This document shows, one piece after another, positions 26,033-42,180 of a DNA stretch of 64,000 nt; position 1 is the first letter of the stretch, and each line of letters opens with the position of its first letter. The translations under genes were made by a program, and so were the position numbers. The notes beneath the pieces are model-generated. The model was given only the letters and a program-made list of their open reading frames with translations. It had not been told where the DNA came from and did not search any database. This DNA comes from an uncultured Planctomycetota bacterium. GTDB taxonomy: Bacteria > Planctomycetota > Planctomycetia > Isosphaerales > Isosphaeraceae. Where the stretch lies: contig CAVTTN010000002.1 in assembly GCA_963737655.1 (NCBI GenBank), forward strand, positions 1,792,001 through 1,856,000, in the 5' to 3' direction.

Positions 26033-26693
26033 TGTTGTCCCCAACCCGCTCGATCTCGTCCTTGACCGCGTCCCCCACGGCCTTGCCCAGGCGGGAGCGC
26101 CCCTGGCGGACGAGGTCGGGGACCGAAGGGGCCTCGGAGGACGGGGCGGGGCTGGCCGACGGACCGTCGGCAACGGAGGAAGGAAGGGCCTGAGCGTCGG
26201 AGAGATGCGCCCAGAACGGCAGGACCACGCCGCGGACCTCGTCGGGGAGGACCGGCCCGACGGCGTCCATCACCCGGCCCACGAAATGGCCGGTGGGGCT
26301 GGCGAAGATCGGCCCCCGGGTGCTCGGCGCGAGGCTCGCCACGAACATCGTCCCGACCAGACCGAGAATGGCTCCCTCGGCGCCGCCCAGGAGCATTCCG
26401 AGGTGGCGGTCGTACGCCTCGAACTTCATCTTGCGGAGGGTCGCCCGCACGGTCCAGGCCACGAGGAACACGCCTCCGGAGACCACGACATAGGCCGCCA
26501 GCATCGACCCGGCCCTCTGGACAGCCGGTTCTCCCGGCAGGTACGGGGCGAGCCGGGCCGAGACGGCATGCGAGCAGAGATACCCCAGGACGAGCGAGGC
26601 GATGCTGGCGATTTGCCATGTCACCCCCCGGATCGCCCCCCAGACCATTCCTGCCAGGACCAGGCCGATCATCACCGCGTCATAGGGCGTCAT
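26007..26693 (-). CDS. CvpA (colicin V production) family membrane protein
   Basis: D...GAIRG N-terminus, DRHLGMLLG, four TMs. Confidence 0.85.
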   Translation of the reverse strand: MTPYDAVMIGLVLAGMVWGAIRGVTWQIASIASLVLGYLCSHAVSARLAPYLPGEPAVQRAGSMLAAYVVVSGGVFLVAWTVRATLRKMKFEAYDRHLGMLLGGAEGAILGLVGTMFVASLAPSTRGPIFASPTGHFVGRVMDAVGPVLPDEVRGVVLPFWAHLSDAQALPSSVADGPSASPAPSSEAPSVPDLVRQGRSRLGKAVGDAVKDEIERVGDNNDRDPPRR

Positions 26694-26784
26694 CCCTGAC
26701 CTCCCGGTGTCTCGTGGGCGCGATTCCCTCCGCGTCCTCATGGTAACCGGTCGGCCGGGCGGGGCAAATGGCGATTTCGGGCTC

Positions 26785-27327
26785 TCAATGGAACCCTTTG
26801 CGGCGGTGGCGGCTATATCGTTGGAGAGAGTCCTCGATGACCGGCATGGCGGCCTCGGCGGCCTGGAACTCGTCCACCTCGACCGACTTCCCTTCCAGGA
26901 GCTTGTAGTCCTGGAAGAAGCGGCGGAGCATCGTCAGACGGTGGACCGGCAGTTCACCGGCCTCCTTGAAGCTGTTGAACTCGGGGTCTCCGACGGCCAC
27001 GGCGAGGATCTTGTGGTCGCGCTTGCCGCTGTCGATCATCGTCATCAGCCCGATGGCCCGGGCCGTGACCAGGGTCATCGGCGCCACGGCCTCCTGGCAG
27101 AGGACCAGGACGTCCAGAGGATCGTCGTCCTCGGCGTAGGTCTGGGGGATGAAGCCGTAATTGGCCGGGTAATACACGGCTGAATAGAGGACACGGTCCA
27201 TCCGGAGGAGGCCGGTCTTCTTGTCCAGCTCGTATTTGACGCTCGACCCCATCGGGATCTCGACCAGGGCGTTGAACTCCTGGGGCAGGTGCTCGCCGGG
27301 GGTCACGTCGTGCCAGGGGTGCAGCAT
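26785..27327 (-). CDS. ppa: Inorganic pyrophosphatase, family I
   Basis: HPWHD, KYELDK, YPANYGFIPQT, DDDPLDVLV, FFQDYK. Confidence 0.96.
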   Translation of the reverse strand: MLHPWHDVTPGEHLPQEFNALVEIPMGSSVKYELDKKTGLLRMDRVLYSAVYYPANYGFIPQTYAEDDDPLDVLVLCQEAVAPMTLVTARAIGLMTMIDSGKRDHKILAVAVGDPEFNSFKEAGELPVHRLTMLRRFFQDYKLLEGKSVEVDEFQAAEAAMPVIEDSLQRYSRHRRKGFH

Positions 27328-27548
27328 CGCGGTCGGGCTTCCAGGGCGAATGGGGAAACATTTGCGGTCGTGGCTTGGATTGTACCATCGTCGGGTTCGG
27401 AAATCATCAGGGGATGGCTCGACGTGATCGTGTGTGCATTGGGCGGGAGAGGATCTCTTCCTTGACCCGAATCGGTGATCGCGTCGCCGGTCTGCCTCGA
27501 TGATGTGTTTGGAGACAAAAATCCAAGTCACCGGGCCCTCCGCCATTT

Positions 27549-29093
27549 ATGCTCCGACTCGATCGACTCCGCCCATGCCAGATCGCCGACGCTCCCCCTC
27601 GGACGCCCGAGGGGCTGTGGGCTTGGGTCCTCGCCTTCACGGGCATTCGGATCGCCCGGGAGCCGGTCTGCCCGGGGCATTGTTCGCCCTGGAAGTTCTT
27701 CTCGGAGATGTACTTCGGGAGGCCCTCTCTGGCCGTCGTTCTCGGGGCTCGGGGGGCCGGCAAGTCGTTCCTGTCGGCCCTGGATACCCACATGACCAGC
27801 CGGTTCCGGCCGAGGCACGGGACGCGCATCCTGGGCGGGAGCCGGTCGCAGTCCGAGCAGGTCTATCGCGTCCTCCGCGAGACGATCCACGACGGGTCGG
27901 GGCCTCTGGGGTCCGATGCGTCCTCGATCGCCCGACTGTTGAAGACCGAGGCCCGGTATCGCAACGGTTCGGAGGTCGCGATCCTCGCGGCGTCGAGCCG
28001 GAGCGTCCGAGGCCCGCACGTCCCTAGCTTGAAGCTCGACGAGGTCGATGAAATCGACATCGAGCTGCGAGAGGCCGCGATGGGGATGTGCATGGCCCGG
28101 GGCGGCTCGTCCGCGTCGGTCCTGATGACCTCGACGTGGCATCGCGTGGGAGGACCGATGGAGGGCCTGGTCGAGCGGGGCCGGGCCGGGGAATTCCCTC
28201 TCTATACCTTCTGCGCCTTCGACGTCCTCGAACGCTGCCCGGAGGAACGCTCGGGACCTAACCTGGAGAAATGCCCGGCGTGCCCGCTGGTGGCGTATTG
28301 CCACGACGTCAGCGACGGCGGCCCTCCTCTGGCGAAGCGATCCGACGGCCATTATGCCATCGACGCGTTGATCCAGAAGGCTCGGACGACGGCCTCTCGG
28401 ACGTTCGAGGCCGATTACCTCTGTCGAGGGCCCAAGGCCGATGGCCTCTGGTTTCCGATGTTCCGGCCCGAGACCCACGTGGAACTTCGGGCCGAATACG
28501 ACCCGGCGTTGCCGGTGCATCTGGCGATCGACTCGGGAGTGTTCACCGGAGCGGTCTTCTTCCAGGTCGCCCTGCGGATGACGACCGAGGGCCTCGTGGA
28601 GGAGGTCCGCGTGTTCGCCGATTACCTGGCGGAAGGCTCGACGGCGGAAAATCATGCCAGAGCGATCATGGACGTGGCCCGATCTCGATGTAACGGAAGG
28701 GTGGACGTCGCTTCGACCGACCCGGCCGGAGGGGCGAGGAACCCAGTCGGCCCGACGGTGATCGCCGAGTACGAGCGGGTCGGTCTGCGCCCTCTTCGGC
28801 GATGGCCGTTGGGGGCGGTGGCCGACGGCCTGGCCCTGGTGGAGTCGTTCGTGAGCCCGGCCGACGGCCGCCCCCGCCTGCTCGTCCACCCGCGATGCGT
28901 CGCCCTGACGAACGCCCTCCGGGGTTATCGCCGGGCGAGGCGCGGTGGCCAGTGGCAGGATTATCCCGAGGACCCCCAGCACCCCCACGAGGACCTCGTG
29001 GACGCGCTCCGGGGGGGACTGCGTGCCTGTTTCCCCGAGGGACGTTCGTCCCGTCCGACCCTCGCGAGGGTCTCAGCCCGACAGGTCTTCTGA
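27549..29093 (+). CDS. terL: Terminase large subunit
   Basis: Walker A GARGAGKS, NGSEV...SVRG, Walker B LKLDEVDE, coupling motif MTST; RNase H-like LAIDSG, DPAG, HPRC, HEDLVDALR. Confidence 0.88.
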   Translation: MLRLDRLRPCQIADAPPRTPEGLWAWVLAFTGIRIAREPVCPGHCSPWKFFSEMYFGRPSLAVVLGARGAGKSFLSALDTHMTSRFRPRHGTRILGGSRSQSEQVYRVLRETIHDGSGPLGSDASSIARLLKTEARYRNGSEVAILAASSRSVRGPHVPSLKLDEVDEIDIELREAAMGMCMARGGSSASVLMTSTWHRVGGPMEGLVERGRAGEFPLYTFCAFDVLERCPEERSGPNLEKCPACPLVAYCHDVSDGGPPLAKRSDGHYAIDALIQKARTTASRTFEADYLCRGPKADGLWFPMFRPETHVELRAEYDPALPVHLAIDSGVFTGAVFFQVALRMTTEGLVEEVRVFADYLAEGSTAENHARAIMDVARSRCNGRVDVASTDPAGGARNPVGPTVIAEYERVGLRPLRRWPLGAVADGLALVESFVSPADGRPRLLVHPRCVALTNALRGYRRARRGGQWQDYPEDPQHPHEDLVDALRGGLRACFPEGRSSRPTLARVSARQVF

Positions 29094-30697
29094 TGCCCAA
29101 AGACACCCAGGACCTCGAACTGATCGGCCGCCGCCACCCCGAGTGGCGCGAGCACCAACTCCGCTGGCGATGGCTCCTCGACTCGCTCGAAGGGGGTGAG
29201 CGCTACCGCCAGGCGATTTATGGATATGACCGGCGCGGCCTCCCCGTGAGGAACCTCGTCCGTCACAAACGCGAATACCCCGACCCTCGCGACTGGACCG
29301 GAACGACCCTCGACGGGATGACCATCCCTGCGACTGGTCCGGACTCGATCGGCCTGACAACCGACGACGATTACGAGCTCCGGAGGGCACGTACCCCGGT
29401 GCCGACGTTCGTCGCCGAGGCCGTCGAGACCCACCTGGCCCGGGTCTACGCCCGAGAGGTTACCCGACGGGGCCCCGAGCGCCTCGTCGAATGGTGGAGG
29501 GACGTGGATGGCTGCGGGACGACGATCGACCACTGGATGGCCGAGACGATCGCGCCCTTGCTGCTGACGCTCGGCCAGCTCGACCTCTGCTTCGATCATC
29601 CCCCCGCCTCGGAGGGCGAGGAGATCGAGACGAGGGCTGATGTCCAGAGGCTGGGCCTGGATCGGTGCGTGGCCTCGTACATCCTGCCGGAAAACCTGCT
29701 CTGGTGGTCCTTGGACGAGTCGGGCAACCGGTACCGGGAATGCCTCGTCCGCGAGTTTCGCGAATCCGACGACGGGCCGGTCGCGCTCTACCGCCACTGG
29801 ACGGCCGAGGGCTGGACCCTCCTCGACCCGGAGGGTGAGACCCTCGCCTCGGCCGATCACCCGTTCGGTCGGGTGCCGATCGTCCGCGTGTTCGACGCGA
29901 GGAAGCCGAGGTGCCTGAACGTCGGCCAGTCGCGCTACGAGGGCGTCGCCGAGAGGCAGCGAGAGTACTACAACCGAGACTCCGAGCTGATCCTCTCGGA
30001 CACGACCCAGGCCCACCCGCTGCTCCAGGGCCCCGAGGACTTCGTCCAGAGCGACGGCACGATCCCGATCGGGCCGAGCTGGCTCCTGCCCAAGAAGAAG
30101 AACGTCCAGGGCAACGGCGCGACCTACGAGGGGTTCTCGGTCGTCGATTTCCCGAAGGACGGCGCGGAGTCGATCCGCAAGAACAAGGCCGACATCCGGG
30201 ACGACGTGGACCGAGACTCGGCGCTGGTCCGTCCGGCGGGGGCGTCGGGCCCGGCGCAGTCGGGACTGTCGAAGCTGGTGGACCTTCGCGACGGCAACAA
30301 CCGCCTGGCGAAGATCGCAAAGGTCCTTTCCCGAGCGGAGCACGCCGCGGCGGAGATGGCCCTGCTGGTCCTGGGCGACGGCGAGGTCGATCCGGCGATC
30401 CGCTCGGAACTGGTGATCAATTATCCGGCCGACTTCGATCTTTTCACTGCCGGGGACGTTGCCGGAGCCACGGCGGATTTCCAGGCGCTGGTGGCCCGGG
30501 CCGGGAGCCTGCCAGAGACCGAGGGCCTCATGCTCTCGCGATTGATGAGGCTCTGCCTGCCGGGATTGACCGATGCCCAGTACGCCCGGTGCGATGAGGA
30601 GGTCATGACGCTTCTGGCCGAGAGGAAGTCCACGCAGAAGTCGACGGCCGGGGAGGGTCAGTTGCAGTACCAGGACGTCAGGCGATGGACGAGCTGA
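29093..30697 (+). CDS. Probable portal protein (534 aa)
   Basis: ATG overlaps the terL stop (TGATG); portal-typical size and position; HPEW...W...D..EGG start, DVDGCGTTID, HPFGRVPIV, QSGLSK, INYPADFD. Confidence 0.78.
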   Translation: MPKDTQDLELIGRRHPEWREHQLRWRWLLDSLEGGERYRQAIYGYDRRGLPVRNLVRHKREYPDPRDWTGTTLDGMTIPATGPDSIGLTTDDDYELRRARTPVPTFVAEAVETHLARVYAREVTRRGPERLVEWWRDVDGCGTTIDHWMAETIAPLLLTLGQLDLCFDHPPASEGEEIETRADVQRLGLDRCVASYILPENLLWWSLDESGNRYRECLVREFRESDDGPVALYRHWTAEGWTLLDPEGETLASADHPFGRVPIVRVFDARKPRCLNVGQSRYEGVAERQREYYNRDSELILSDTTQAHPLLQGPEDFVQSDGTIPIGPSWLLPKKKNVQGNGATYEGFSVVDFPKDGAESIRKNKADIRDDVDRDSALVRPAGASGPAQSGLSKLVDLRDGNNRLAKIAKVLSRAEHAAAEMALLVLGDGEVDPAIRSELVINYPADFDLFTAGDVAGATADFQALVARAGSLPETEGLMLSRLMRLCLPGLTDAQYARCDEEVMTLLAERKSTQKSTAGEGQLQYQDVRRWTS

Positions 30698-30882
30698 ACC
30701 TCATTGATGGGGATCGGGGGTCCAGGGCCGACGGCCCGGGACCCTCCGAGGAGATAGACCGAATGGTTCCGAGGGAAGTCTCTTCTCTGGCCGCCGCGAT
30801 GGTCGCGGTGGTCGCGGCGGCGGCGGTCGTCCGAGGGCTGATCGCCCCGGCGGTCCTGGGCCTGTTCGACCGGCGGAAGTGA
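30685..30882 (+). CDS. Small protein with one hydrophobic helix (65 aa)
   Basis: Overlaps both neighbours; acidic N-terminus, hydrophobic stretch, basic end DRRK. Confidence 0.45.
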   Translation: MDELNLIDGDRGSRADGPGPSEEIDRMVPREVSSLAAAMVAVVAAAAVVRGLIAPAVLGLFDRRK

Positions 30883-31472
30883 GCGATCCGATGATGGCGG
30901 GAGACTCGGGGATGCAGACTGAACCGACGACCTTCGAGCCGGGCGACCCGGGGCCGAGCGGCCCCTCGGCCGACGAGATGGTCACGATCTCGCGCTCGGA
31001 GCTGGAGGCGCTGAGGGCTCGGGCCGGGTCGCCGGCCGGCCGGCCCGAGGAGGCCGCCGAGGCTGACCGCCGTCTCGCCGAGCTGGAGAAGGCGTACCGG
31101 GGGGCCGTCCTGGATCGCGAGCTGGCCACGGCGCTAGCCGGACGGCCCCTGGTGCCGGGGGCGGCGGCTCAACTCATCAAGCTGTGGCGCGAGGATTTCG
31201 ACGTGTATGAATCCGACGGCTCGCTCCGGGCCGTCTCTCGCGAGGGCAAGCCGCTGGCGAAGGCGGTGGCCGAGCGGCTGGCGGAGCCGGAATTCGCCCA
31301 CTTCCGGGCCCCATCGTCGCGAGGAGGGGCAGCGGCCCGAGGGGCGAATCGCCCTCCGGGGCCTGAGCCAATCGGCGCGAAGACCCTGGGCGAGGCCGCA
31401 CTGATCCGCTGGCGGGAAGCCGCCTCGGGTCCAACCGGGGCCGCCCAGGCCATCGGCCTCCGCCGTCGCTAG
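30879..31472 (+). CDS. Probable capsid scaffolding protein
   Basis: Directly upstream of the MCP; acidic/Pro N-terminus, coiled coil, then HF...RGG motif and flexible tail as in phage scaffolds. Confidence 0.62.
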   Translation: MSDPMMAGDSGMQTEPTTFEPGDPGPSGPSADEMVTISRSELEALRARAGSPAGRPEEAAEADRRLAELEKAYRGAVLDRELATALAGRPLVPGAAAQLIKLWREDFDVYESDGSLRAVSREGKPLAKAVAERLAEPEFAHFRAPSSRGGAAARGANRPPGPEPIGAKTLGEAALIRWREAASGPTGAAQAIGLRRR

Positions 31473-31578
31473 GGGCGGGTCGAGTCATGAACGGTCCGGT
31501 GGATGAACCGCCGGCGTCCCTCTCGGAGCGAGCCGTCACCGCGGAGATTCGTCCGCTTTTCCGGGAGATCGTCTCGTC

Positions 31579-32722
31579 ATGCCGAATGCGTACTTGCAGG
31601 GGATCCAGGGGTCGCTCGACAACCAGGCCCAGATCCGCAACGACATCAGCGTGGTCGCCATCAACTGGTTCGTCAACCGCTGCCCGCTGGTCACGCGAGT
31701 GCCCCGCGTCCCGTGCGGGTCGACGACCTTCACGATGGTCAGCCGATCGTTCCGCAGCCGGACGGCCCAGCTCGCCGCCCCGGCCCTGGCGACCGATACT
31801 CAGCTGACCCTGGCCGACGCCAGCGCCTCTGATGAACGGCGACGTCCTGGAGCTGGCCTCGGGCGAGCGGGTCGAGGTCGTCGCCGACCCGATCCTCGCC
31901 ACGAATACCGTGCTGATCCGCCGAGGAGCCGAGGCCACCACGCCCGCTGCTGGCTCGGCCGGGGACACGATCCGCCTGATCGGCAACAGCCGGACTGGAG
32001 GCGAGGTCCTGCAGAACGCCGTGGCCTTCCGGCCCACCGGCGTGACCCAGTACTGCCAGACCTGGCAGCACCCGGTGCAGGTCAGCGGGTCGCTCCAGTC
32101 CTCGCTCGGCTACCAGGCGGCCCAGGGCGCCCGGACCCCGTTCGAGCAGACCAAGATGGACGCCCTCCAGAATCTCATGGACGACATGGAGTATTCCTCC
32201 TACTACGGCCGGGGTGAGGATCCCAGCATCTCGGGCCGACCGAAGCAGAAGGGCGTGCGGACCCTGGTCACCCCGAACCTCACGACGACCCCGACCAACG
32301 CCGGCGCCTACAAGCCGACGGACCTGATCCGCGACACGCTCGAGAAATGCCGGATCGGCGGCGGCGACCCGGACGTGCTGATCGTCTCGACGAACTTCAT
32401 GACCGGCCTGGCCACCTGGGGCCACGCCGCCCAGAGGATCAACGCCGGGACGAACGTCTTCGGCACGCCGATCGACGTCTTCGAGGCGCCGTTCCTCGGC
32501 GGCGTTTCGCTGATCGAGGCCCCGCTGCTCAAGCCGTTCACCGCCATCTGCCTGACCTCCTCGGAGGTGAGGATGAGGATGAAGCGGAACGAGTTCTGGA
32601 ACCCGCGAGGTATCCGCGGCGACGCCCTGGAAGGGGACTGGATCGCCGAGGGGGCCGTCGAGGTGGACAACCCGTCGCACCACGCCTGGGTCGAGGGGAT
32701 CACGGCGTTCTCGGCGACCTGA
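31579..32722 (+). CDS. Major capsid protein, SU10-like/DUF5309-type HK97 fold (frameshift ~31826-31831)
   Basis: QYCQTWQHPVQVSGS resembles the N-x-x-Q-I-F...V-S-G motif; DMEYSSYYG, KGVRTLV, FGTPIDVF, RGDALEGDWIAEGAVEV; ~380 aa once the two frames are joined. Confidence 0.78.
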
Positions 32723-32745
32723 TCGAGGGCGTCTCGATCGTCCGA

Positions 32746-32776
32746 CCGCCCCGGGCGAGGCCGGCGCCCGGGGCGG
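32746..32776 (+). terminator. Hairpin directly after the capsid gene
   Basis: CCGCCCCGGGCG-aggccgg-CGCCCGGGGCGG, a perfect 12-bp stem without a U-tract. Confidence 0.55.
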
Positions 32777-32819
32777 CCGCTCCAGTCCCGTCCCCTGTCC
32801 TCGATGAGGTGTCCTCACC

Positions 32820-33166
32820 GTGATCGGCTACCAGTTCCCCGGATATCCCCCGTATCTCGAGGCCGCCGTGACGGGAATGGGCCGGCCCGTGTCGGAAGCG
32901 ACGGCGAGGCGGTCGTCGGCCCTGGCGGCGGTCTCGAACCTCTGTGCTCAGGCTTCGCTGGCCCCATCGGGGCACGTCGCGGGCATCCTGGCCGAGGCGG
33001 AGGCGCTGCGGGATGGCCTCGAAGCCGCACTCCGGGCTGCTGACCTGATGCTGGCCGACGTCCGGCAAAGCCGGGGGGGACGGTCCCGTCGTCGGGCCGG
33101 CCTTCGCCGCCTTGCGAGACGAAGTCCCCACGCCGGGCCCCGGGCCCCGAATCGAGGAAGCCATGA
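32820..33166 (+). CDS. Hypothetical protein of the phage-like operon (probable frameshift at the G-run ~33073-33079)
   Basis: GAGG RBS then GTG; helical Ala/Leu-rich N-terminus; a one-base shift would end it in an ATGA overlap with the next gene. Confidence 0.45.
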
Positions 33167-33834
33167 CCTCCATCTCGTTCGCAACCGACGAAGACGTGGC
33201 CCTCGCCGCGTCGTCCGATTTCTGCCTGATTTGTCCCCGAGACCAGAAGCTGGCGTGTGGGACCGACGGGTACTTCGACCCGACCGATCGCTGGACATTG
33301 CAGTCCCCCTCGGCCGACTTCGCGGCCCTGGGCGTGACGCCGGGGATGGTCGTCCAGCTCACCGGCCCGACCTCGGCATTCCGCCCTCCGGGCGAGCTTC
33401 TGGTCATCTCCAAGGTGGCGCCGGGCTCGGCCACGCTCCGCCGCAAGGGCCAACTCGCCGGCTTGGGGCAGCCTCCGAGCCCGGTTTCCGGTCTGGTTGG
33501 CGTGGAGTTCCTGATAACGTCGCTCGTTCCCCAGATCGCTCGGGCCTCGGACGAGCTGGGATGCCAACTCGGCCTGGGCTCTTGCGCCTCGATGACAGGA
33601 CCGGCTCTCTCTTCGGGAGAACTCCGGGAACTCCGCGATTTGACCGTCCTGACCGTTATCGTCCGCCAGTATCTGGACGTTTGCCGCGACCCCGGCGGCA
33701 AGCCCGACGCCCTGGCTGCCAAGGCCGAGGCGGTCCGTGCCGAGCTCGACGAGAAGATGGCCCGGGCGACCGTCCGCCGGGGAGGCGGGACGGCCGGGGA
33801 AGCCCTGAGGTTCTCCTCGCGGATCTCTCGCTGA
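33163..33834 (+). CDS. Putative head-tail adaptor/head-completion protein
   Basis: N-terminal FATDEDV resembles the YATxxD start of adaptor proteins; helical C-terminus; position after the MCP. Confidence 0.55.
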   Translation: MTSISFATDEDVALAASSDFCLICPRDQKLACGTDGYFDPTDRWTLQSPSADFAALGVTPGMVVQLTGPTSAFRPPGELLVISKVAPGSATLRRKGQLAGLGQPPSPVSGLVGVEFLITSLVPQIARASDELGCQLGLGSCASMTGPALSSGELRELRDLTVLTVIVRQYLDVCRDPGGKPDALAAKAEAVRAELDEKMARATVRRGGGTAGEALRFSSRISR

Positions 33835-33931
33835 CGACCCTCCAGGGCAGGAGCGCCCCGGAGACTCCTCACACCAGGCGACGCGGGCCGAGGCTCGGCC
33901 AGCGTTCCGGTCCCTTCCGCAGGTGACCTTC

Positions 33932-35317
33932 ATGGCTCTTTCCGCAACCCAGGTCTGGGAGGTCCGCGCGACCGGCAACGACGCCAACGGCGGGGCCTAC
34001 AACTCCGCGAAAACCGGCGTCGCCGGGTCGCTCGATTATTCCCAGCAGGATTCCCCGCAGGTCACGATCGACAACTCGGCCATCGTCTGCACCACGCCGG
34101 GCGCGAGCTCCAACGTCCTCACGTTCACCTCGGGCTACACCCCCACCGCCGCCGACGTCGGCAACGTCGTCAACGTCACGGCCGGCACCAACGTCAACGC
34201 CGGCCGGTACGAGATCACCGCGTACACCTCGACGACCTGGACCTTGACCGGGGCCGCGAACCTCACGACGGCCGGAGGGGCCGGATCGGCCATCGCGGGC
34301 CGGATGGGCGGCGCCCTGGCCTCGCCCGGGGCCGCCGCCGGGGCCGGGATCGTCGCGGGGAACGTGGTTTATATCAAGTACAACGCGACCCCCTACGCGA
34401 TCGGGTCGGGGACCGCCAACACGTCCGGCAACCGGCCCGCCCCGGCCGCCCAGTCGAGCTGGATCGGCTACGTCGCGGCCCGTGGGGACGTCGCCCTCTG
34501 GGGGACGATGCCGAGCCTCCAGGCCACGGGCATCTCCTACGCGATCTTCACCGTGGCGGCCAACGACATCGCCGTCGAAGGGCTGGAGTTCGACGGCAAC
34601 AGCAAATCCGGCGTGTCCGGCATGACGGCGTCGGGTGCCTTGCGTTTGCGGGGCTGGAACTGCCGCGCCAAGAACTGCACGACCTCCTACGGGTTCGGCT
34701 CGACCGGCGTGGGCGTCCTGCACTACTGCGAGTCGATCAACAACAGCGTCGGGTTCTACCTCAGCGCCAGCTTCCGCCGCTGCGTGTCGCGGTCCAACGC
34801 CAGCGACGGGTTCCGGGTGGCCACCACGGCCACCTTCACCGAGTGCGTCGCGTACTCCAACGGCGGTGACGGGTTCGGCAACGGCTTCTCGGTGATCGCC
34901 TCGCGGTGCGCGGCGATCGCCAACACCGGGGCCGGGTTCAACCTCGACAACGCCCTGTGCGTGGCTGATTCCTGCATCGCCTACGGCAACACGGGGATCG
35001 GCTTCGCCTGCGCGACCACGGCGCGGCCCGACGTGAAGGTCTTCAATTCCGCGGCCGGGGCGAATACGGGCGGCAACATCTCGGCGAACCTCTCGGCGGC
35101 CAACGCGCCATTCGTCCTGACGATCGACCCGTTCGTGAACCGCGCGGGGCTGAACTTCGCGCTGAACAGCACAGCCGGTGGCGGGGCCTTGCTGCGGGGG
35201 ACTGGGACGGGCGCATACCCGGGCGGTTTCACGACAAGCTTCTCCGACGTGGGTCCGGCGCAGCATCAGGACGCGGGCACAAACTCGGTTTCCAACGGCT
35301 CTTGGATGGAGGGTTAG
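33932..35317 (+). CDS. Right-handed beta-helix protein, putative virion spike/decoration
   Basis: GNDANGG start; repeated C..xxNxxxGF units; no signal peptide. Confidence 0.68.
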   Translation: MALSATQVWEVRATGNDANGGAYNSAKTGVAGSLDYSQQDSPQVTIDNSAIVCTTPGASSNVLTFTSGYTPTAADVGNVVNVTAGTNVNAGRYEITAYTSTTWTLTGAANLTTAGGAGSAIAGRMGGALASPGAAAGAGIVAGNVVYIKYNATPYAIGSGTANTSGNRPAPAAQSSWIGYVAARGDVALWGTMPSLQATGISYAIFTVAANDIAVEGLEFDGNSKSGVSGMTASGALRLRGWNCRAKNCTTSYGFGSTGVGVLHYCESINNSVGFYLSASFRRCVSRSNASDGFRVATTATFTECVAYSNGGDGFGNGFSVIASRCAAIANTGAGFNLDNALCVADSCIAYGNTGIGFACATTARPDVKVFNSAAGANTGGNISANLSAANAPFVLTIDPFVNRAGLNFALNSTAGGGALLRGTGTGAYPGGFTTSFSDVGPAQHQDAGTNSVSNGSWMEG

Positions 35318-35319
35318 AC

Positions 35320-36441
35320 GTGGCGGACAATACGCAGCTGGGCTCGGGGATCGGCGGGGACGTCATCAAGACCGAGGACGTGGGCTCGTACAAGCTGGCG
35401 GTGTCGAAGATCTACCTCGGCGCCCACGGCGTGGATGGCGGCCCGGTGACATCGAGCAATCCCCTGCCGGTCTCGGTGGGGAATTTCCCGGCGACGCAGG
35501 GCGTGGCCGGGACGGTGACGGCGAACGCGGGGACGGGGACGTTCGCGGTCTCGGCGGCGAGCCTTCCCCTGCCTCTCGGGGCGGCGACGGCGTCGAAGCA
35601 GCCGGCGCCCGGTTCGGCGGGTTCGTCGTCCTCGGACGTCCTGACGGTCCAGGGGATCGCCGGGATGACGCCGATGAAGGTGGACGGCTCCGCCGTGACC
35701 CAGCCGGTCAGCGGGACCCTCTCGGTGGGGAATTTCCCGGCGACGCAGGGCGTGGCCGGGACGGTGACGGCGAACGCGGGGACGGGGACGTTCGCGGTCT
35801 CGGCGGCGAGCCTTCCCCTGCCTCTCGGGGCGGCGACGGCGTCGAAGCAGCCGGCGCCCGGTTCGGCGGGTTCGTCGTCCTCGGACGTCCTGACGGTCCA
35901 GGGGATCGCCGGGATGACGCCGATGAAGGTGGACGGCTCCGCCGTGACCCAGCCGGTCAGCATCTCGGGGACGCTCGCGACCAACTCGAGCCTGATCGTC
36001 GGCGGTCTGGCGGTCTCGGCCGGCAACCCGATCCCGGTGGCCAACACGAACCCATTGCCGGCGGGCACGAGCCTGATCGGAGCGGTGATCTCGTCGCTGA
36101 CAACCGGGGCGATCTACAACGGGGTGACGGCCCTCACGCCACAGTTCGCGCCGATCTCGGCCTCGGCCTCCGGGGACAACACCGTGGTCGCGGCCGTGGC
36201 TGGCAAGAAGATCCGAGTCCTGAAATACACGATCCTTGCCAACGGGACGGTGGCGGTCAAGTTCCGCTCCCCCTCGGTGGCGGATCTGACCGGGCTGATG
36301 ACCCTGGGGACGAACTCGGGGGTTGGGGGCGCGTTCTGCCCAATCGGCCTGTTCGAGACGGCCGCCGGAGACCCTCTGATCGTGAACCTCTCCGGGGGGA
36401 CCGGCGGGGTGGCGGGGCACTTGACATACGTTCAGGTATAA
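35320..36441 (+). CDS. Gly/Ser/Thr/Ala-rich beta-strand repeat protein, putative fibre
   Basis: Repeats such as GTVTANAGTGT, KVDGSAVTQPVS, NPLPV; C-terminal VAGKKIRV domain; internal 83-aa duplication. Confidence 0.65.
   Translation: MADNTQLGSGIGGDVIKTEDVGSYKLAVSKIYLGAHGVDGGPVTSSNPLPVSVGNFPATQGVAGTVTANAGTGTFAVSAASLPLPLGAATASKQPAPGSAGSSSSDVLTVQGIAGMTPMKVDGSAVTQPVSGTLSVGNFPATQGVAGTVTANAGTGTFAVSAASLPLPLGAATASKQPAPGSAGSSSSDVLTVQGIAGMTPMKVDGSAVTQPVSISGTLATNSSLIVGGLAVSAGNPIPVANTNPLPAGTSLIGAVISSLTTGAIYNGVTALTPQFAPISASASGDNTVVAAVAGKKIRVLKYTILANGTVAVKFRSPSVADLTGLMTLGTNSGVGGAFCPIGLFETAAGDPLIVNLSGGTGGVAGHLTYVQV
35471..35961 (+). repeat. Perfect in-frame tandem duplication, period 249 bp
   Basis: 35471-35712 and 35720-35961 read as identical over 242 bp. 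Confidence 0.95.
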
Positions 36442-36443
36442 TC

Positions 36444-36548
36444 ATGGGATTCATTCTCCTGCTCATGGCCGCGCTGACGCGGCCCGACGGCGCCCCGGTC
36501 CGGCGGCGTTGGTACCCCGGTCTCACTCGCCGTCACGGCGGCCGATAG
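36444..36548 (+). CDS. Small 34-aa protein
   Basis: MGFILLLMAALTRPDGAPVRRRWYPGLTRRHGGR fills the gap between two operon genes; its stop abuts the AGGAGG RBS of the next gene. Confidence 0.5.
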   Translation: MGFILLLMAALTRPDGAPVRRRWYPGLTRRHGGR

Positions 36549-36561
36549 GAGGCGTTCGCGC

Positions 36562-39500
36562 ATGGGATCTGCTCTCGGCTTCTCCCCGGCGATGTCCGCC
36601 GTCCGCGACCACGGGTCGGGTCGGGCCGACATCCGCGACTTCGGTGCGGTGTCGTACCCGACGGGCACCCCGCCCACCGCGGCCGTCCAGGCCACCCGCG
36701 CCGCGTTCCAGGCGGCCATTGACAGCTTCAAGAGCAGTCCCAACGGGGGGGTTGTTTACGTCCCCGGAGGCAAGTGGTTCCTCGACCGCCCGGTCTTCTG
36801 CGACCTGTCCAATGTCGCGATCGTCGGCGAGGGGCCGTCGGCCAGTCTCGTCTACGCGACGACGGCCCACGATATGTTCGTTTATGGCGTTGCCCGCCAG
36901 CCCCAGGGGGTGGCCCTCACGGCCGACCACTTCGTCGATCTCTTCACGGGGGGACCGGGGGGGGCCTCGTACCTGGACTCCAGCGCCGTCAACGGCTCGG
37001 GCCAGCGCTGGGCTCTGCGGACCAAGGGAAACTGCCATATCGCCCAGCAGGGCGGGGCATTCGACACGGTGATGGGGACCTACTACAAGGGGCTCCAGGT
37101 CCTGACTGTCGAGTTCGCCATCGATCTGACGAACAATCCCGGCGCGGCCAACGGCTCGAATCAATACTCCGGCTTCGGGCTGAACGACGGCCCGACGCCG
37201 ATGCCCTGGCTCCTCGACATCGCTCGCGGCCGCTTCCAGGTTATGTTCTCGACGTCCGACAAGGTCTTTCGCCTCTTCCAATTCTACACCGTCCCTTCGA
37301 CGCCCGGGTTCGTCCGTGGGGCCTTCCAGATCGACCTGGCGAACGCCCAGGTCGCCGCCTGGATCAACGGGGTCCAGGTCGCCACGACCAACAGCCTGGG
37401 CTCGGGCTTCACTGCGTCGGCGGGCTTGACGTTCCTGCCCAATCAGATGAGCCCGTTCGGGATCGGCTCCAACGCCTTCGAGGCTAGCGTCGTCACCGAT
37501 TATTACGGCGGCCCCTCGGACCTGACCTTCTGCGGACTGAAGGTCAGCAGTGCGCTGCTGTACACGGCGGCCGGGGTGGGCACGGCGAAGACTCGGATCG
37601 ACTCCAAGACGGTCAACGACAACCTGAGGTACTTCACCGTCGAGACGTCCACGATCGGGCTGCTCCCGCTGACCGACGACCCGGCGATCTCGACCATCGA
37701 TCGGGTCCTCTCGATCCAGGGTTATTACCCCTACCCCAGCACCGGCTATTTCCTCGACAACGCGGGCCACGGCAGCCCCTGGGCGGGGATCAACGCCGGC
37801 CCGATCTCGGGCTTGTTCGTGCGATGCGCGAACGCCTACTTCGGTCGGTCGATCGTGACGGGCTGGACGGGGAGCCTCAACGTCCGGGGATGCACCCTCT
37901 GGGGCGGTAGCCACGCGATCGGGACACTGAACTTCGGGGCGAACTACCCGATCGTCATCTCCGACTGCTCGCTCTACGGGAGCGACGCCGGGATTAGCCT
38001 CTTCTACTCCTCGAGCGTCACGATCCGCAACATCCAGTTCCTCAGCCCTTCCTACCGGGCCGTCATCCGGCTCTACGAGAGCCACCTGGTCCGGGTCGAG
38101 GGCCTGTTCGTCGCCGGGTACTGCGCCCCGGACTACATCGTCTGGGCGAACAAGAGCGACCTCGATCTCGACCGTGCGAACTTCGACTTCGAGGGCAGCG
38201 ACCAGGGCCCGACGATCGCCATGATCTACGCCAGCAGCGACTCGTTCCGCACGATGTCCTCCACTCTGCGCCTGAGCAACATCGAGTGCGGCATCATCCA
38301 GGACTCGGCGGTCGTGATCATGCTCGACGACCTGGGCGTCGAGGACGGCTGGGGCAGCACTCCCAGCACGTTCTCGATGCGGGACGTCTACATCGAGGGC
38401 CAGGTCTTCCGATCCTGGGTCCAGACCAATGGGACGAGGTGGCGTGCGGAGTTCGAGGCCGAGAACGCCAGGCTCCGCCCGCGATGGGTGGAGAACACGG
38501 CCGGGGTCGGCTCGGTGGTGGCGAGGCACCCGTATTACTTGGGGCCGCCCCGTGATGGGACCTGGGACCGGAACGCGAACATCCTCCGCCCCAAGAACCC
38601 CACCGACGGCCAGTTCACCGAGTGGCGATGCCTCGCCACCGGCTCCTACGGGACCCCGACGCCCCCGTCGTGGTTCGGGCTGAGTCCGATCGATACGAAC
38701 GGGACGGCCCTGGCGGCCTATGTGTCGGACAACGCCTACTGGGCGTCCTCCGGGGCCCCGGTCGGCGCCCAGGGGGCCTTCTCCAACTCGGTCCACTCGA
38801 TGGGCCTGAATGCCCTGTTCGGTGGCTCGGCAACGACCCTGCCGTCGCCGCTCTCGATGGCCCTCAATGCCTATAAGGCGACCCGATCCACCTACCTCGG
38901 CGAGATGTCCGGGGGTGGGTACGCCCGGGTCCCTGTGCCGACGACGAGCTGGGGGGCGTCCTCGGGCGGGACCATGATCAATGTCCAGGCGATTTCGTTC
39001 CCCCAGGCCTCAGGGCCCTGGACCTTTGGGACGTTTACGCGGTGCCAGTCGCTCTGCCTTCTGGATCCTTCGAGCCACCCCATCGCCGCTGTCGATATCG
39101 CCCCCCTGACCGTCACGTCCGGGATGGCACCCTCCTTCCCGGTCGGGTCGATCACCATCGCCCCGGCGGTGGCCTCGACGCAGGGGGGATTCGCCACCAT
39201 CGTCCACGACATGCTGAACAACGCCTGGCTCCGAGGGACGCTCCTGGCTCCGCCGGCGGTGTACCTGGCGCTGTCCACCTCCGCAGCTACCACCGCGAGC
39301 GCCCCGGTTGAGCCGTTCGGCGGAAGCTACGCCCGGGTCGCCACGAGCCCGGCGAGCTGGACCTCGGCCCTCCCCGGCAACCTCACCAATAGCTACGGGC
39401 CGGTCGGCAACACGGCCGTTGTGACCAACGCGGTGAGCCTGTCATTCCCGGCCCCCACCGGCTCGTGGGGGACGGTCCAGAGCGTCTATCTGATGGATTC

Positions 39501-39615
39501 CTCCAGCGGCGGGAACGTCCTGGCCGCGGCCAACCTGACCATTCCCCGGACGGTCAAGGCCGGCGGCCCGGCCAACGCGTTCGCGCCGGGAGCCCTGTGG
39601 ATCTGCCGCTCGTAA
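36562..39615 (+). CDS. Tailspike-like protein: pectate-lyase-3-type beta-helix, LamG-like insert, two C-terminal phage fibre-like domains
   Basis: DIRDFGAV...AAFQAAID...GGVVYVPGGKW; AWINGVQV; duplicated E.SGGGYARV / EPFGGSYARV domains; AGGAGG RBS. Confidence 0.75.
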   Translation: MGSALGFSPAMSAVRDHGSGRADIRDFGAVSYPTGTPPTAAVQATRAAFQAAIDSFKSSPNGGVVYVPGGKWFLDRPVFCDLSNVAIVGEGPSASLVYATTAHDMFVYGVARQPQGVALTADHFVDLFTGGPGGASYLDSSAVNGSGQRWALRTKGNCHIAQQGGAFDTVMGTYYKGLQVLTVEFAIDLTNNPGAANGSNQYSGFGLNDGPTPMPWLLDIARGRFQVMFSTSDKVFRLFQFYTVPSTPGFVRGAFQIDLANAQVAAWINGVQVATTNSLGSGFTASAGLTFLPNQMSPFGIGSNAFEASVVTDYYGGPSDLTFCGLKVSSALLYTAAGVGTAKTRIDSKTVNDNLRYFTVETSTIGLLPLTDDPAISTIDRVLSIQGYYPYPSTGYFLDNAGHGSPWAGINAGPISGLFVRCANAYFGRSIVTGWTGSLNVRGCTLWGGSHAIGTLNFGANYPIVISDCSLYGSDAGISLFYSSSVTIRNIQFLSPSYRAVIRLYESHLVRVEGLFVAGYCAPDYIVWANKSDLDLDRANFDFEGSDQGPTIAMIYASSDSFRTMSSTLRLSNIECGIIQDSAVVIMLDDLGVEDGWGSTPSTFSMRDVYIEGQVFRSWVQTNGTRWRAEFEAENARLRPRWVENTAGVGSVVARHPYYLGPPRDGTWDRNANILRPKNPTDGQFTEWRCLATGSYGTPTPPSWFGLSPIDTNGTALAAYVSDNAYWASSGAPVGAQGAFSNSVHSMGLNALFGGSATTLPSPLSMALNAYKATRSTYLGEMSGGGYARVPVPTTSWGASSGGTMINVQAISFPQASGPWTFGTFTRCQSLCLLDPSSHPIAAVDIAPLTVTSGMAPSFPVGSITIAPAVASTQGGFATIVHDMLNNAWLRGTLLAPPAVYLALSTSAATTASAPVEPFGGSYARVATSPASWTSALPGNLTNSYGPVGNTAVVTNAVSLSFPAPTGSWGTVQSVYLMDSSSGGNVLAAANLTIPRTVKAGGPANAFAPGALWICRS

Positions 39616-39624
39616 GGGGGCTTC

Positions 39625-41274
39625 ATGGCACTGCGCATTCGATTCCAATACGGGGCTGGCGCCTCGCTCGGCGTCTCCATCGAGCGCCTGGCCGACGGCC
39701 TGTTCTACGACTTCGCTGCGACCGGATCGACGGCCGGCACCTTCACCGGCTCCCCGACGACCCCGATCCGTGCCCTGCCGGCCGACACGGACACGGCCCA
39801 CTTTCCCAATCGGTACCGGCTCAACGTGACGCCCACGTCGAATTCCGTGTTCCTGGACGGTGATTACTGCGTGACGATCCACGACATGGCCTCGGCCAAC
39901 ACGGTGGTGGCCGAGCTTTCGGCCGTCATGCACAACGGAGACGACGCCACGGTGATCCCCTCCGGGGCCGGGGCCGACCCGTGGTCCCAGCCCCTGCCCG
40001 GGTCGTACACCCCGGGCAGCGCGGGGTATCTCCTCGGCTCGAACCTCGACGCGAAGATCTCCACCCGCCTTGCGTCCTCAAGCTACACGGCCCCGCCATC
40101 AGACTATCAGCAAAGGGGCCAGGCGGTCGTGCTCCCGGCCGTGGCGCCGAGCTGGTACGTCCAGGCGATGTCACCGCCGACAGTGGCTCAGATCGTCTCC
40201 GGGGTCTGGGACGAGCCCAAGGCGGGCCACGTCCAGCCCGGCTCGTTCGGCTCGCTCCTGGACGCCTCGATCAGCTCCCGGCTGGCCGGTTCCACCGACA
40301 CACCGGGCACGACCACGCTCCTGTCTCGGCTCTCGACCTCGCGGGCCGCGTACCTCGACAACCTCAATGTCGGCGGCCCCGTGGCCAGCCATTCCGACGT
40401 CGCCGCGATCGGCAACAACACGCTCATCCGAATCTTCGTCCCCGACGTGGTCCAGAAGCCGGCCTCGGGCTCGACGGCCCGGATCATCTATCTCTACACC
40501 TACGACGAGCAGGGCCAAATGGCCACGCCCGATAGCCTGCCGACGGTCACCGTGAGCAACGGGGCCGGCTCCAGCCGCAACACCAACCTCACCTCGACGA
40601 CGATGAGCAAGGTCGCCCCGGGGCAGTATCAGACCCTCTATACCCTCAACGCGACCGATCCGACGGAGCAATTGCTCTGGAGCTTCACCGTCCTTCAGGG
40701 GGGGGTGGCTCGACAGTACGGCGGGACGACCGAGGTTGTGGACATCGCATCGGTCGATTTCAACGCGACGGACCGCGCGAACCTGAACTCCCTGGTGGCG
40801 ATGGCCGGGACCAGCGGCGTGATGGTCGCGTCCTCGTGCCGGTCCGGCTACTCGCTGTCTCCCGACGAGCACGCCGCGATCACCGCGGACGCCCTGGCCG
40901 CGCTGAACGCCTCGATCCCTGCCAGCCCGGCGTCGGGATCGGTCTTCGACCGGCTTGACGTCAAGGTCTCGACGCGATCGACTTACAGCGGAGGTCCCGT
41001 CGCCTCGGTCACCGCGCCGGTGACCGTGGGCCAGATCAACGACAAGACCGGCTACTCTCTCGCGCCGACCGGCCTCGACGCGGTCCAGGTCGAGCCCGGG
41101 ATCAACGCCCGCCAGGCCCTTGCGCCGATCCTCGCGGCTTGCGCCGGGGTGGTCAGCGGGGCAGGGACCGGCACGATCAGCATCAAGGGCGGCAACTCCG
41201 CCACGACCCGGATCATGGCGGCGACCGACGCCCAGGGAGACCGCACCGCGGTCGTCCTGACCCTGCCGAACTGA
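39625..41274 (+). CDS. Putative virion structural protein (549 aa)
   Basis: Ser/Thr/Gly-rich; repeated PGSxGxLL...LDAxISxR units, AQIVSGVWDE, C-terminal RIMAATDAQGDRTAVVL; no signal peptide. Confidence 0.62.
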   Translation: MALRIRFQYGAGASLGVSIERLADGLFYDFAATGSTAGTFTGSPTTPIRALPADTDTAHFPNRYRLNVTPTSNSVFLDGDYCVTIHDMASANTVVAELSAVMHNGDDATVIPSGAGADPWSQPLPGSYTPGSAGYLLGSNLDAKISTRLASSSYTAPPSDYQQRGQAVVLPAVAPSWYVQAMSPPTVAQIVSGVWDEPKAGHVQPGSFGSLLDASISSRLAGSTDTPGTTTLLSRLSTSRAAYLDNLNVGGPVASHSDVAAIGNNTLIRIFVPDVVQKPASGSTARIIYLYTYDEQGQMATPDSLPTVTVSNGAGSSRNTNLTSTTMSKVAPGQYQTLYTLNATDPTEQLLWSFTVLQGGVARQYGGTTEVVDIASVDFNATDRANLNSLVAMAGTSGVMVASSCRSGYSLSPDEHAAITADALAALNASIPASPASGSVFDRLDVKVSTRSTYSGGPVASVTAPVTVGQINDKTGYSLAPTGLDAVQVEPGINARQALAPILAACAGVVSGAGTGTISIKGGNSATTRIMAATDAQGDRTAVVLTLPN

Positions 41275-41290
41275 CCAGAGGAGGCCGCCT

Positions 41291-41843
41291 GTGCCTTTGG
41301 GGAACTACCTGGCTTCCAGCTACTTTCCGCCGACGTATTACGGGGCGTCCGATCCCCCGCCCTCGGGCGGGGGAACGGGTTCCGGGCCGACCTCCTCGTA
41401 CCGGGACCGCGACGCCTTCGCCGGTCTCCAGGCGGCCCTTCGCGCCTCGGGACGGTTCGCCGACGTGATCTTCCCCGGCCCGATCGACGCCGAAGCCGTC
41501 GTCGGGGGCCGTTGTCCGGTGGCTGTGATCGATCCGGGTGAATGGACCGAGGCTCCCGACGCCACCCCGGGAGTCCTCCTCCGGCATGTGACCTTCACCC
41601 TGACCCTGGCCAGCCGAGCCGGATCGGCCCGAGACCGCTTCGAGATCCTGGATCGCCTCTCCGGCTTCGCTCAAAACGTCGTCGAGGGGCTCGACCCTCG
41701 GCGGTAATTGCCTCTCCGCCCTGACACAGCTTCGGGCCGGCAAGTACCAGCCGGCTCCTGGGCATCCCGAGCTCCGTCTGGTGCTCCAGGGCGGATTCAG
41801 TTACCCGGTGGCCTCGGCCAACGGGCACGACACGTCCCCCTGA
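41291..41843 (+). CDS. Putative neck/tail-completion-like protein (frameshift ~41695-41697)
   Basis: GGAGG RBS; LQAALRASGRFADV...PVAVI...FTLTL...LDRL pattern continues as LGGNCL...GGFSY in the next frame to TGA 41843. Confidence 0.5.
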
Positions 41844-41885
41844 CCGGCCGGCCGGCCGCGCCGGCGCCCCTGGGAGCCCTATGCC

Positions 41886-42125
41886 ATGACGCTCGTCCGC
41901 CTCGGCCAAGTCATCGTCAACTTCGACCTGGTCACCCACGTCCGGGACATGTCGGCCCCTGGCGCCGCGACCTCTGGGCCGTTTCTCGTCGAGTTCGTTC
42001 GGGGCCACTCGATCCAGGTGACCGCCGCGGCGGCTCCCCTGGCGGCCTGGCTTGCCGGGCACCTGACAGACCTGACCCCCTCGCCGGTGCTGCCTGTCCC
42101 GGTGACTCCTTCTCCCTCCGCCTGA
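41886..42125 (+). CDS. Small hypothetical protein (79 aa), last gene of the operon
   Basis: GGAG RBS; VIVNFDLVTHV...VEFVRGHSIQV beta-rich pattern. Confidence 0.6.
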   Translation: MTLVRLGQVIVNFDLVTHVRDMSAPGAATSGPFLVEFVRGHSIQVTAAAAPLAAWLAGHLTDLTPSPVLPVPVTPSPSA

Positions 42126-42141
42126 ACCACGTCGGCGAACG

Positions 42142-42180
42142 AGGTCGACCTCGGCTGGAACCCTCAGCCCAGGTCGACCT
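42142..42180. terminator. Hairpin between the phage-like operon and the convergent Trm112 gene
   Basis: AGGTCGACCTcGGCTG-gaaccct-CAGCCcAGGTCGACCT, 16-bp stem with one mismatch, overlapping the Trm112 stop. Confidence 0.55.

Follow-up and report, generated by a model that had tools for sequence, protein, structure and literature searches.

Introduction

Gene transfer agents (GTAs), which include RcGTA and its relatives, BaGTA, VSH-1, Dd1, and VTA, are encoded by endogenized phage structural and packaging genes without replication or integration functions, and these genes are single-copy, vertically inherited, co-diversifying with their hosts, and under purifying selection. RcGTA is specified by a siphovirus-type head-tail cluster with a tail tube and a tape measure, and Dd1 has a podovirus-like shape; capsid-forming phage-inducible chromosomal islands (cf-PICIs), a further class of phage-derived elements, encode a terminase, portal, scaffold, capsid, and head-tail connectors and no tail. 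Few independently domesticated GTAs are known to us, and we know of none from Planctomycetota, a phylum with few genetic tools, in which gene exchange is almost uncharacterised. Here we describe a cluster of 13 phage-derived genes that shares with GTAs the genomic features named in the first sentence; it lies in a 64,000-nt stretch of the chromosome of an uncultured Isosphaeraceae bacterium (contig CAVTTN010000002.1 of assembly GCA_963737655.1), which was analysed as a whole and is referred to as the window. We consider it reasonably probable that this cluster, which belongs to a lineage that we call clade A, is a domesticated, vertically inherited, phage-derived Isosphaeraceae operon that builds a DNA-filled capsid with a short neck, a GTA being its closest functional model. 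The gene identities, the fixed site, the single copy, the co-divergence with the host, the purifying selection, the lack of mobility genes, and the losses by deletion are all directly supported here; particle formation, the identity of the packaged DNA, its release, and its delivery to cells are what we only infer. A domesticated particle system is the best explanation because the element is immobile, occupies one site, co-diverges with its host, and keeps intact packaging genes under purifying selection.

The cluster differs from described GTAs in belonging to Planctomycetota, in having a podophage capsid of the SU10 type (PF17236), in showing no recognisable tail tube, tape measure, or small terminase (TerS), and in having a conserved core of head and neck only, with an exchangeable spike cassette. 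A point in common with RcGTA is the spikes, the available text of 10.64898/2026.07.19.739414 describing for RcGTA a tailspike of the fast-changing, polysaccharide-binding kind. Membership in the RcGTA-like Rhodogtaviriformidae was rejected, as the major capsid protein (MCP) belongs to PF17236 and none of the 13 genes matches a family of tube, tape-measure, or hub proteins; the different capsid lineage and the missing siphovirus tail argue for an independent domestication. Likeness is also found to SU10 (Kuravirus) and Ralstonia phage GP4: the MCP belongs to the SU10_MCP family, the C-terminus of the large spike is the domain of GP4 fibre I (Gp80), and the adaptor model aligns to tail-complex chains of both phages. 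However, sequence identity to these phages is very low, and the cluster is chromosomal and without nozzle, needle, ejection, replication, or lysis genes.

Six attributes of GTAs as viriforms are listed in the available text of PMC9662315, three of them genomic (particle proteins, full endogenization, and vertical inheritance with co-diversification) and three experimental (random host DNA, a head too small for the GTA genes, and delivery). With respect to the genomic attributes, caudovirion-like particle proteins are represented by TerL, portal, scaffold, MCP, adaptor, terminator-like, and spike genes; full endogenization is seen in the lack of replication and integration genes, the host-like composition, and the same slot across genera; and vertical inheritance is seen in congruent supported nodes, shared bipartitions, synonymous divergence (dS) like that of the flanks, and losses by deletion. 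Our full-text literature search, with subscription journals outside its coverage, returned no paper on a GTA-like element in Planctomycetota, Isosphaeraceae, or Tautonia. The available text of a 2024 GTA review (PMC11841831) does not mention planctomycetes, the GTAs in that of a Namib preprint are alphaproteobacterial, and in that of a 2025 review of Planctomycetota (PMC12673574) the terms "gene transfer agent" and "prophage" do not occur.

Gene content and boundaries of the cluster

The 13 genes are co-oriented on the + strand between positions 27549 and 42125; gene frames were set by frame analysis of third-position GC content (GC3) and families were assigned by PHROG and Pfam profile searches. 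The cluster, with its candidate control elements, comprises:

27472..27506, +, candidate promoter/operator motif TCGGTGAT...CGATGAT; non-coding, ~45 nt 5′ of TerL
27549..29093, +, large terminase TerL (ATPase and nuclease); phrog_2, 1.6e-12
29096..30697, +, portal protein; phrog_145, 1.6e-32; start codon uncertain, homology from 29111
30685..30882, +, tiny single-pass membrane protein, 65 aa, translationally coupled; position and transmembrane helix conserved
30879..31472, +, head scaffolding protein; phrog_206, 5.1e-7; collinear in relatives
31579..32722, +, MCP, SU10 type; PF17236 SU10_MCP, 2.6e-34 on 31832-32722
32820..33165, +, small conserved protein, ~115 aa in relatives; tblastn 54% to orthologue over 32829-33062
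33163..33834, +, head-to-tail adaptor with HK97 gp6-like helical core and inserted beta-barrel; AlphaFold2 (AF2) model, VIA-align
33923..35317, +, spike-like protein of the variable cassette, parallel beta-helix-type repeats; repeat pattern in the sequence
35302..36441, +, fibre-like protein with tandem duplication; homologues in 3/20 loci
36562..39615, +, large tailspike with pectate-lyase-like N-terminal part and Gp80 C-terminal domain; PF23140 1.4e-33, PF12708 1.1e-7, PF13229
39625..41274, +, modular fibre-like protein; its N-terminal (1-148) and C-terminal (430-549) modules are found apart from each other in other genera
41291..41843, +, tail-terminator-like neck protein; orthologue model and weak PHROG match
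41886..42125, +, last small gene of the operon; GC3 0.85; homologues ending at the same position in 4 relatives
42141..42154, no strand, 14-nt perfect palindrome, possible two-way terminator; between the last gene and convergent Trm112

An earlier note on this stretch had described about 14 co-oriented genes in an order from terL to neck, beginning ~220 bp from a divergent ppa and ending at a hairpin shared with a convergent Trm112 gene. Co-orientation and gene order stand, the ppa start lies ~220 bp upstream as described, and the hairpin corresponds to the palindrome at 42141-42154, which our terminator scan, requiring a T run, missed; the count falls to 13, and the ORF of 368 aa at 32820-33926 that had been taken as adaptor-like was rejected. 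This ORF (GC3 0.64) spans the small gene (32820-~33165) and the true adaptor (33163-33834) and is a false one that arises because the stop of the small gene is lost. The note had also reported no integrase, repressor, replication gene, tRNA, or att repeat, and our searches agree: no integrase, repressor, or replication family was found by family searches in any ORF of the window, no tRNA across 15-52 kb of the window, and no att-like repeats flanking the cluster. The remaining ORFs of the window are housekeeping or ordinary planctomycete genes, the sole mobile trace being an IS66_C fragment at 19261-19503, and the cluster has a host-like composition (GC 0.67-0.70, GC3 0.80-0.94).

Across 42 homologues, 71 columns of TerL are invariant, including GxRGxGKS, LxLDEVDE, ST, three Asp, and a Cys/His cluster, bearing out the claim that TerL keeps its ATPase and nuclease motifs; we take GxRGxGKS to be Walker A, LDEVDE to be Walker B, ST to be the ST motif, and the three Asp to be those of the nuclease. 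A sequence search of the PDB with TerL gave no match. The Cys/His cluster consists of C222, C230, C242, C245, C251, and H252, which lie between the ATPase and nuclease domains and are invariant in the 42 homologues; this region (residues 222-252) is possibly a zinc-binding insertion. The portal is 75% identical to same-genus orthologues, and the 65-aa membrane protein keeps, in relatives, its position between portal and scaffold, its C-terminal hydrophobic helix, and an LGLFxRR end.

The two neck proteins were recognised mainly by structure. The AF2 model of the adaptor (pLDDT 85.5) aligned by VIA-align to the necks of phage 812 (Z 9.4) and Mu (Z 9.1), the JBD30 connector (Z 8.0), the GP4 portal-tail (Z 6.8), the SU10 tail (Z 6.5), and HK97 gp6 (Z 6.0); a Foldseek search of the PDB with this model returned nothing at E<=0.001, and the adaptor profile found a chance match only among PDB sequences. 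For the orthologue of the protein at 41291-41843, the Atlas model fits the tail-terminator families PF23818 and PF23840 (TM score 0.76-0.80), and phrog_4204 "tail terminator" was matched at a weak E of 0.005. No significant family in Pfam, PHROG, or Atlas was found for the 115-aa protein, the last gene, three of the four spike/fibre genes, or a helix-turn-helix (HTH) gene that precedes TerL in relatives.

Distribution of the cluster and its relatives

TerL and MCP each occur once in the source genome. TerL matches were present in 82 of 101 Isosphaeraceae genomes (all lineages and partial matches included) and MCP matches in 90 of 121 genomes of the family, the only one that the sampled taxonomic order contains. 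Clade A itself, recognised by a full-length MCP of 67-83% identity, is carried by at least 37 of 120 other Isosphaeraceae species genomes, among them the cultured Tautonia sociabilis GM2012, Tautonia sp. JC769, and Tundrisphaera sp. TA3; five further high-identity clade-A copies of MCP are split, in assemblies in which rpoB is also split. Outside the family, the 400 other Planctomycetota genomes yielded one weak match (23% identity, 8.8e-11). A tblastn search with MCP against 50,697 phage genomes found no match, and in IMG/VR the relatives of clade A lie at 45-53% identity or below, 53% being the highest value seen.

More distant branches (MCP identity 33-60%) occupy other loci, with up to nine TerL-like matches per genome. 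They include a real prophage that encodes a serine recombinase and has exactly the layout of a 38-kb IMG/VR prophage, another prophage that encodes both a phage DAM/GNAT methylase and a protein with an ADP-ribosyltransferase domain, and a remnant that adjoins an integrase and IS91. Clades B and C among these relatives (e.g., prophage IMGVR_UViG_2889415604_000004, 38 kb) share with clade A homologous TerL, portal, scaffold, MCP, and adaptor genes in the same order; however, they differ in MCP sequence (33-58% identity), in location, and in length (33-54 kb), and their genes include one for a serine recombinase, a phage DAM/GNAT methylase, or a D5-like primase-helicase. Prophage membership of clade A was rejected, as integrase or att, lysogeny, replication, and lysis modules are lacking in the window and in the 20-kb clade-A loci.

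Two of the distant loci have features of their own. In L130 (G052:C1:2523800-2543770), an ORF at 4891-7137 on the - strand encodes a 748-aa virion-module protein whose C-terminal part matches PF03496 (6.6e-26), an ADP-ribosyltransferase-exoenzyme domain; this locus also encodes a phage DAM-like/GNAT-like protein. A clade B element in G080 (L033, L142, and L143; G080:C1:2067800-2127600) is ~33 kb long, is flanked by a UvrA-like gene and an M32 peptidase gene, and encodes a sigma-70 region-2 protein and a D5-like primase-helicase, no integrase being recognised in it; it may be either a prophage or the product of a second domestication.

A common chromosomal slot and its empty versions

Synteny was assessed over 43 clade-A loci, the upstream flank being scored in the 32 with >=7.5 kb to the left of MCP. 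In the consensus, ppa, CvpA, PFK, an EgtD-like methyltransferase, and an 85-aa HTH gene precede TerL; the core runs from TerL through portal, the membrane protein (in part of the loci), scaffold, MCP, and the small gene to the adaptor; a spike cassette of 0-9 kb, the terminator-like gene, in some loci a further cassette, and the last gene follow; and Trm112 (convergent), PSP1, a methyltransferase, and an FAD oxidoreductase lie downstream. Portal was present in 41 of the 43 loci, scaffold in 40, TerL in 39, adaptor in 35, the terminator-like gene in 27, and the small gene in 26. The ppa/CvpA/PFK/methyltransferase neighbourhood was found upstream in 19 of the 32 informative loci, and Trm112/PSP1 was reached downstream in 13 clade-A loci, placing the cluster, as a rule, in one slot between PFK-methyltransferase and Trm112-PSP1 across genera.

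Absences of the cluster in some lineages are explained by deletion. In G040, a congener of Tundrisphaera TA3, only the HTH leader gene and the last gene remain, 1.2 kb apart, with a DDE_3 transposase gene between them (L138, G040:C1:3186000-3205500); this scar is followed by a 10-kb insertion with IS1595- and DDE_Tnp_1-type transposases. In G021, PFK, the methyltransferase, and PSP1 are adjacent, forming an empty slot without the element; 14 kb of unrelated genes fill the slot in G074; and G080, from a species clade with the other lineage, has nothing beside Trm112-PSP1.

Co-divergence with the host and selection

The TerL and MCP trees recover the supported shallow clades of rpoB. For 13 genomes, a tree of concatenated TerL, portal, and MCP had 6 of 10 bipartitions in common with the rpoB tree; all three strongly supported element branches agreed with rpoB, and no strongly supported conflict was seen. 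Mantel tests against rpoB gave r=0.44 for TerL (n=22; 43 of 5000 permutations as high) and r=0.62 for MCP (n=13; 0 of 5000 permutations as high). In one set of pairs, dS ranged from 0.42 to 1.63 for the cluster, similar to the 0.65-1.80 of its flanks.

Ratios of nonsynonymous to synonymous divergence (dN/dS; pairwise NG86, one out-of-frame rpoB pair left out) are approximate because dS is near saturation, and were as follows:

TerL, 0.07-0.32
Portal, 0.08-0.22
MCP, 0.15-0.38
Scaffold, 0.25-0.42
Adaptor, 0.31-0.39
Terminator-like, 0.34-0.52
Big spike (36562-39615), 0.58, the highest of the cluster
Modular fibre-like protein (39625-41274), 0.22
Host flanks, 0.05-0.23, except 0.55 for a partial PSP1 alignment (33% identity)
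rpoB, 0.05-0.13

The earlier note had proposed that the host maintains this locus to package DNA, a proposal that copy number, spread, synteny, trees, and selection support. Clade A occurs once per genome, usually in the same slot where its flanks are visible; the element trees agree with rpoB at well-supported nodes; all ratios (0.07-0.58) lie below 1, with dS close to that of the flanking host genes; and the homologues found in prophages sit on other, more distant branches. With regard to the patchy presence that the note had named as telling against it, the cluster is not universal, some lineages having lost it, and at least 37 of 120 species carry clade A.

These data also bear on the possibility that clade A is an active temperate phage that integrates site-specifically at one att site in many hosts, since site-specific integration can yield a shared slot and relatives with a serine recombinase exist. 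However, no integrase, att repeat, or tRNA is found at the cluster, a complete tailed phage would not fit into 7.5-15 kb, searches of the phage and IMG/VR collections did not recover clade A, and the trees and dS follow the host, so that this possibility is already contradicted by the evidence and must be regarded as extremely improbable.

Conserved head-neck core and variable spike cassette

Comparison of gene orders indicates that the conserved unit consists of the head and neck genes and that the spike genes form a swappable cassette. In the same-genus genomes G085 and G097, both Tautonia genomes, and others, the adaptor is followed directly by the terminator-like gene, the last gene, and Trm112, without spikes, giving a compact form of ~7.5 kb, whereas Tundrisphaera sp. 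TA3 has the long form; the two largest spike/fibre genes have no homologue anywhere in the G085, G049, and G097 genomes. TerL and portal of the G097 lineage show the strongest constraint that we measured (dN/dS 0.07-0.11). Where present, the cassette varies between genera, lies before or after the terminator-like gene, and has only N- or C-terminal modules in common. Homologues of the spike-like gene at 33923-35317 occur in few relatives, one of them annotated with PF13229 (Beta_helix). The fibre-like gene at 35302-36441 contains a perfect tandem duplication (249 bp x 2.0, 100%, at 35471-35961) that doubles an 83-aa module; it must have arisen very recently or be an artefact of the assembly.

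Since strong selection on the core persists in lineages that lack spikes, the particle may function with no conventional attachment organ, or with a borrowed one. A head-and-neck-only core is compatible with a satellite-like dependence on foreign tails or with a role other than transfer. In the former case, clade A would be a fixed satellite-like capsid module, no longer mobile, whose filled heads use the tails or spikes of related phages. Such a module might be of benefit by interfering with these phages or by transducing neighbouring genes laterally. The conservation of head and neck genes only, with a spike cassette that is variable or absent, and the strong selection on compact versions (TerL 0.07) fit such a module, as does the terminator-like neck protein, since proteins of this type attach to tails assembled beforehand; the related prophages that circulate in this family have adaptors homologous to that of clade A (37-46% identity), and the gene set of the compact spike-less variants is the same as that of cf-PICIs. 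Yet, cf-PICI or satellite membership was rejected, as clade A lacks the integrase, replication, and derepression modules of cf-PICIs, occupies one fixed slot, and has trees congruent with those of its host, a co-divergence unlike that of mobile satellites. In addition, compact G097 (99% complete) has one TerL and one MCP match and hence no resident helper of this kind, and the window operon encodes its own spikes. We therefore regard a satellite-like module as unlikely.

The spikes bear on a further alternative, in which the particle is made under stress and harms competitors or aborts infection, any packaged DNA being incidental. PBSX-like behaviour is the model for such a killer or defence particle, and the fast change and exchange of depolymerase-like spikes (dN/dS 0.58, modular swaps) fit an arms race at the cell surface. 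However, the invariant and strongly selected catalytic motifs of TerL indicate that DNA packaging itself is kept, spike-less lineages still retain the core, and the operon contains no recognisable toxin or lysis gene; we therefore consider a killer or defence particle improbable.

Frame breaks and assembly quality

The earlier note had reported no premature in-frame stops, which does not hold when the window is compared with orthologues: in the present assembly, MCP, the small gene, and the terminator-like gene are broken. MCP is split by a +1 frame break near 31828, which leaves the N-terminal 83-104 aa in another frame, whereas in relatives it is a single ORF of 380-413 aa covering profile positions 8-292. 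In the small gene after MCP, either the frame or the stop is lost close to a G7 run (33072-33078), and the terminator-like gene is split near 41686 by an extra G.

These three breaks are probably assembly indels, because rpoC, secA, and gyrA of the source genome (three contigs, 87.7% "complete") are each split by frame breaks at similar density, with 3 breaks in ~13.5 kb of essential genes versus 3 in the 14.6 kb of the cluster; rpoB is intact, and a smaller tblastn sample, of only ~9 kb of host genes, showed 0 frame breaks. The split host genes lie outside the window (rpoC, G000:C2 6635601-6639726; secA, 320726-323886; gyrA, 5791798-5794253). Overall, indels interrupt the coding sequence of this assembly about once every 4-5 kb, which calls for caution whenever one of its genes is scored as a pseudogene. 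The closest named relative, L079, is of no use for judging the frame breaks, as its DNA is only ~76% identical and full of gaps.

The same breaks could be taken as signs of an old defective prophage remnant that serves no host function and survives by chance or slow decay; such a remnant would also account for the missing lysogeny, replication, and lysis modules, the lost HTH leader and rearranged upstream flank of the window copy beside the IS66 fragment, and the loss of the cluster from several lineages. This explanation is at odds with long ORFs that stay open in dozens of genomes across saturated synonymous divergence (dN/dS 0.07-0.4), with a density of frame breaks equal to that in rpoC, secA, and gyrA of the same assembly, and with the conservation of non-coding motifs before the operon, and we find it quite improbable.

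Leader gene and upstream motifs

An HTH gene precedes TerL, at a distance of 83-632 bp, in 27 of 31 strong matches, family-wide, and is likely to be the switch of the operon in most genera. In a Foldseek search of the PDB with its model, LuxR/NarL-type and ECF sigma region-4 domains came first (E 0.26-1.3), with no match at E<=0.001, and the HTH profile found none below E 0.39 among PDB sequences; a LuxR/sigma-region-4-type DNA binder is thus a lead suggested by the model and by weak matches. The HTH gene is missing from the window and from three other genomes of the genus, in searches whose positive controls matched. In the window, the ppa-CvpA-PFK block (24429-27329) is inverted and adjoins the IS66_C fragment, and the EgtD-like methyltransferase is found at 58670-59881, 16.5 kb downstream of the cluster; this arrangement looks like a local rearrangement that also removed the HTH leader gene.

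The TCGGTGAT...CGATGAT motif before TerL is common to all four genomes of the genus, despite differing upstream flanks. In about 15 of 23 loci (e.g., L045, L047, L054, L057, and L079), an A-rich motif, AAAAAC-N-GGCC, is located 20-70 nt upstream of the HTH gene; conspicuous in GC-rich DNA, it is a candidate for a conserved promoter element of the operon. A scan for sigma-70 promoters and terminators gave matches no more frequent than in shuffled sequence.

Proposed mechanism and significance

If the cluster is a domesticated particle system, the scaffold and the SU10-type MCP would assemble a procapsid on the portal, TerL, with its intact ATPase and nuclease motifs, would pump DNA in and cut it, and the adaptor and terminator-like protein would close the portal channel. 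In the window genome, the four spike/fibre proteins (beta-helix depolymerase-like and Gp80-type) would sit on the neck and bind cell-surface polysaccharide. As the element can neither replicate nor excise nor integrate, its particles would be filled with either host DNA or the locus itself, and would be retained by the host lineage for their usefulness.

Several observations weigh against a domesticated, vertically inherited particle. No spike gene was found in several lineages with the queries used, so that no delivery machinery is visible there, and the cluster has no gene recognisable as encoding a tube, nozzle, tape measure, TerS, or lysis protein. Clade A is absent from a whole species clade (g17, g31, g28, g40, and others), in which a related element is found elsewhere, as well as from single species inside carrier genera, making its presence patchy at the scale of the family; its upstream neighbours are kept in only 19 of the 32 informative loci, and loci of the deepest genus, g16, have neither flank. 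The deep nodes of the element trees lack resolution, the distance correlation of TerL with rpoB is only moderate, and the saturation of dS blurs the dN/dS ratios. Finally, the leader HTH gene is missing in the window, and, together with the three frame breaks, this loss could mean that the window copy has been freshly inactivated.

Beyond the single locus, it is quite possible, and we propose it tentatively, that Isosphaeraceae have kept a host-owned DNA-packaging particle derived from an SU10-like phage, probably since their early radiation, with an invariant core, a sigma-region-4-like switch, and swappable spikes, and that this would be the first GTA-like viriform of Planctomycetota. The element is a well-delimited candidate, present in cultured strains, with natural knock-outs (scars and spike-less variants) and phage cousins in the same family. 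If DNA is indeed transferred, a new phylum and a new capsid lineage would be added to GTA biology, and the element could be developed into a DNA-delivery tool for planctomycetes; if the role is another, a head-neck-only core under strong selection would represent an unexplained use of a phage capsid.

Neighbouring genes

Two neighbours that are not conserved beside the element in relatives are a 1596-aa Ser/Thr kinase with a long TPR array, encoded upstream at 19570-24360, and a Fic-domain protein, encoded downstream at 48219-49565.

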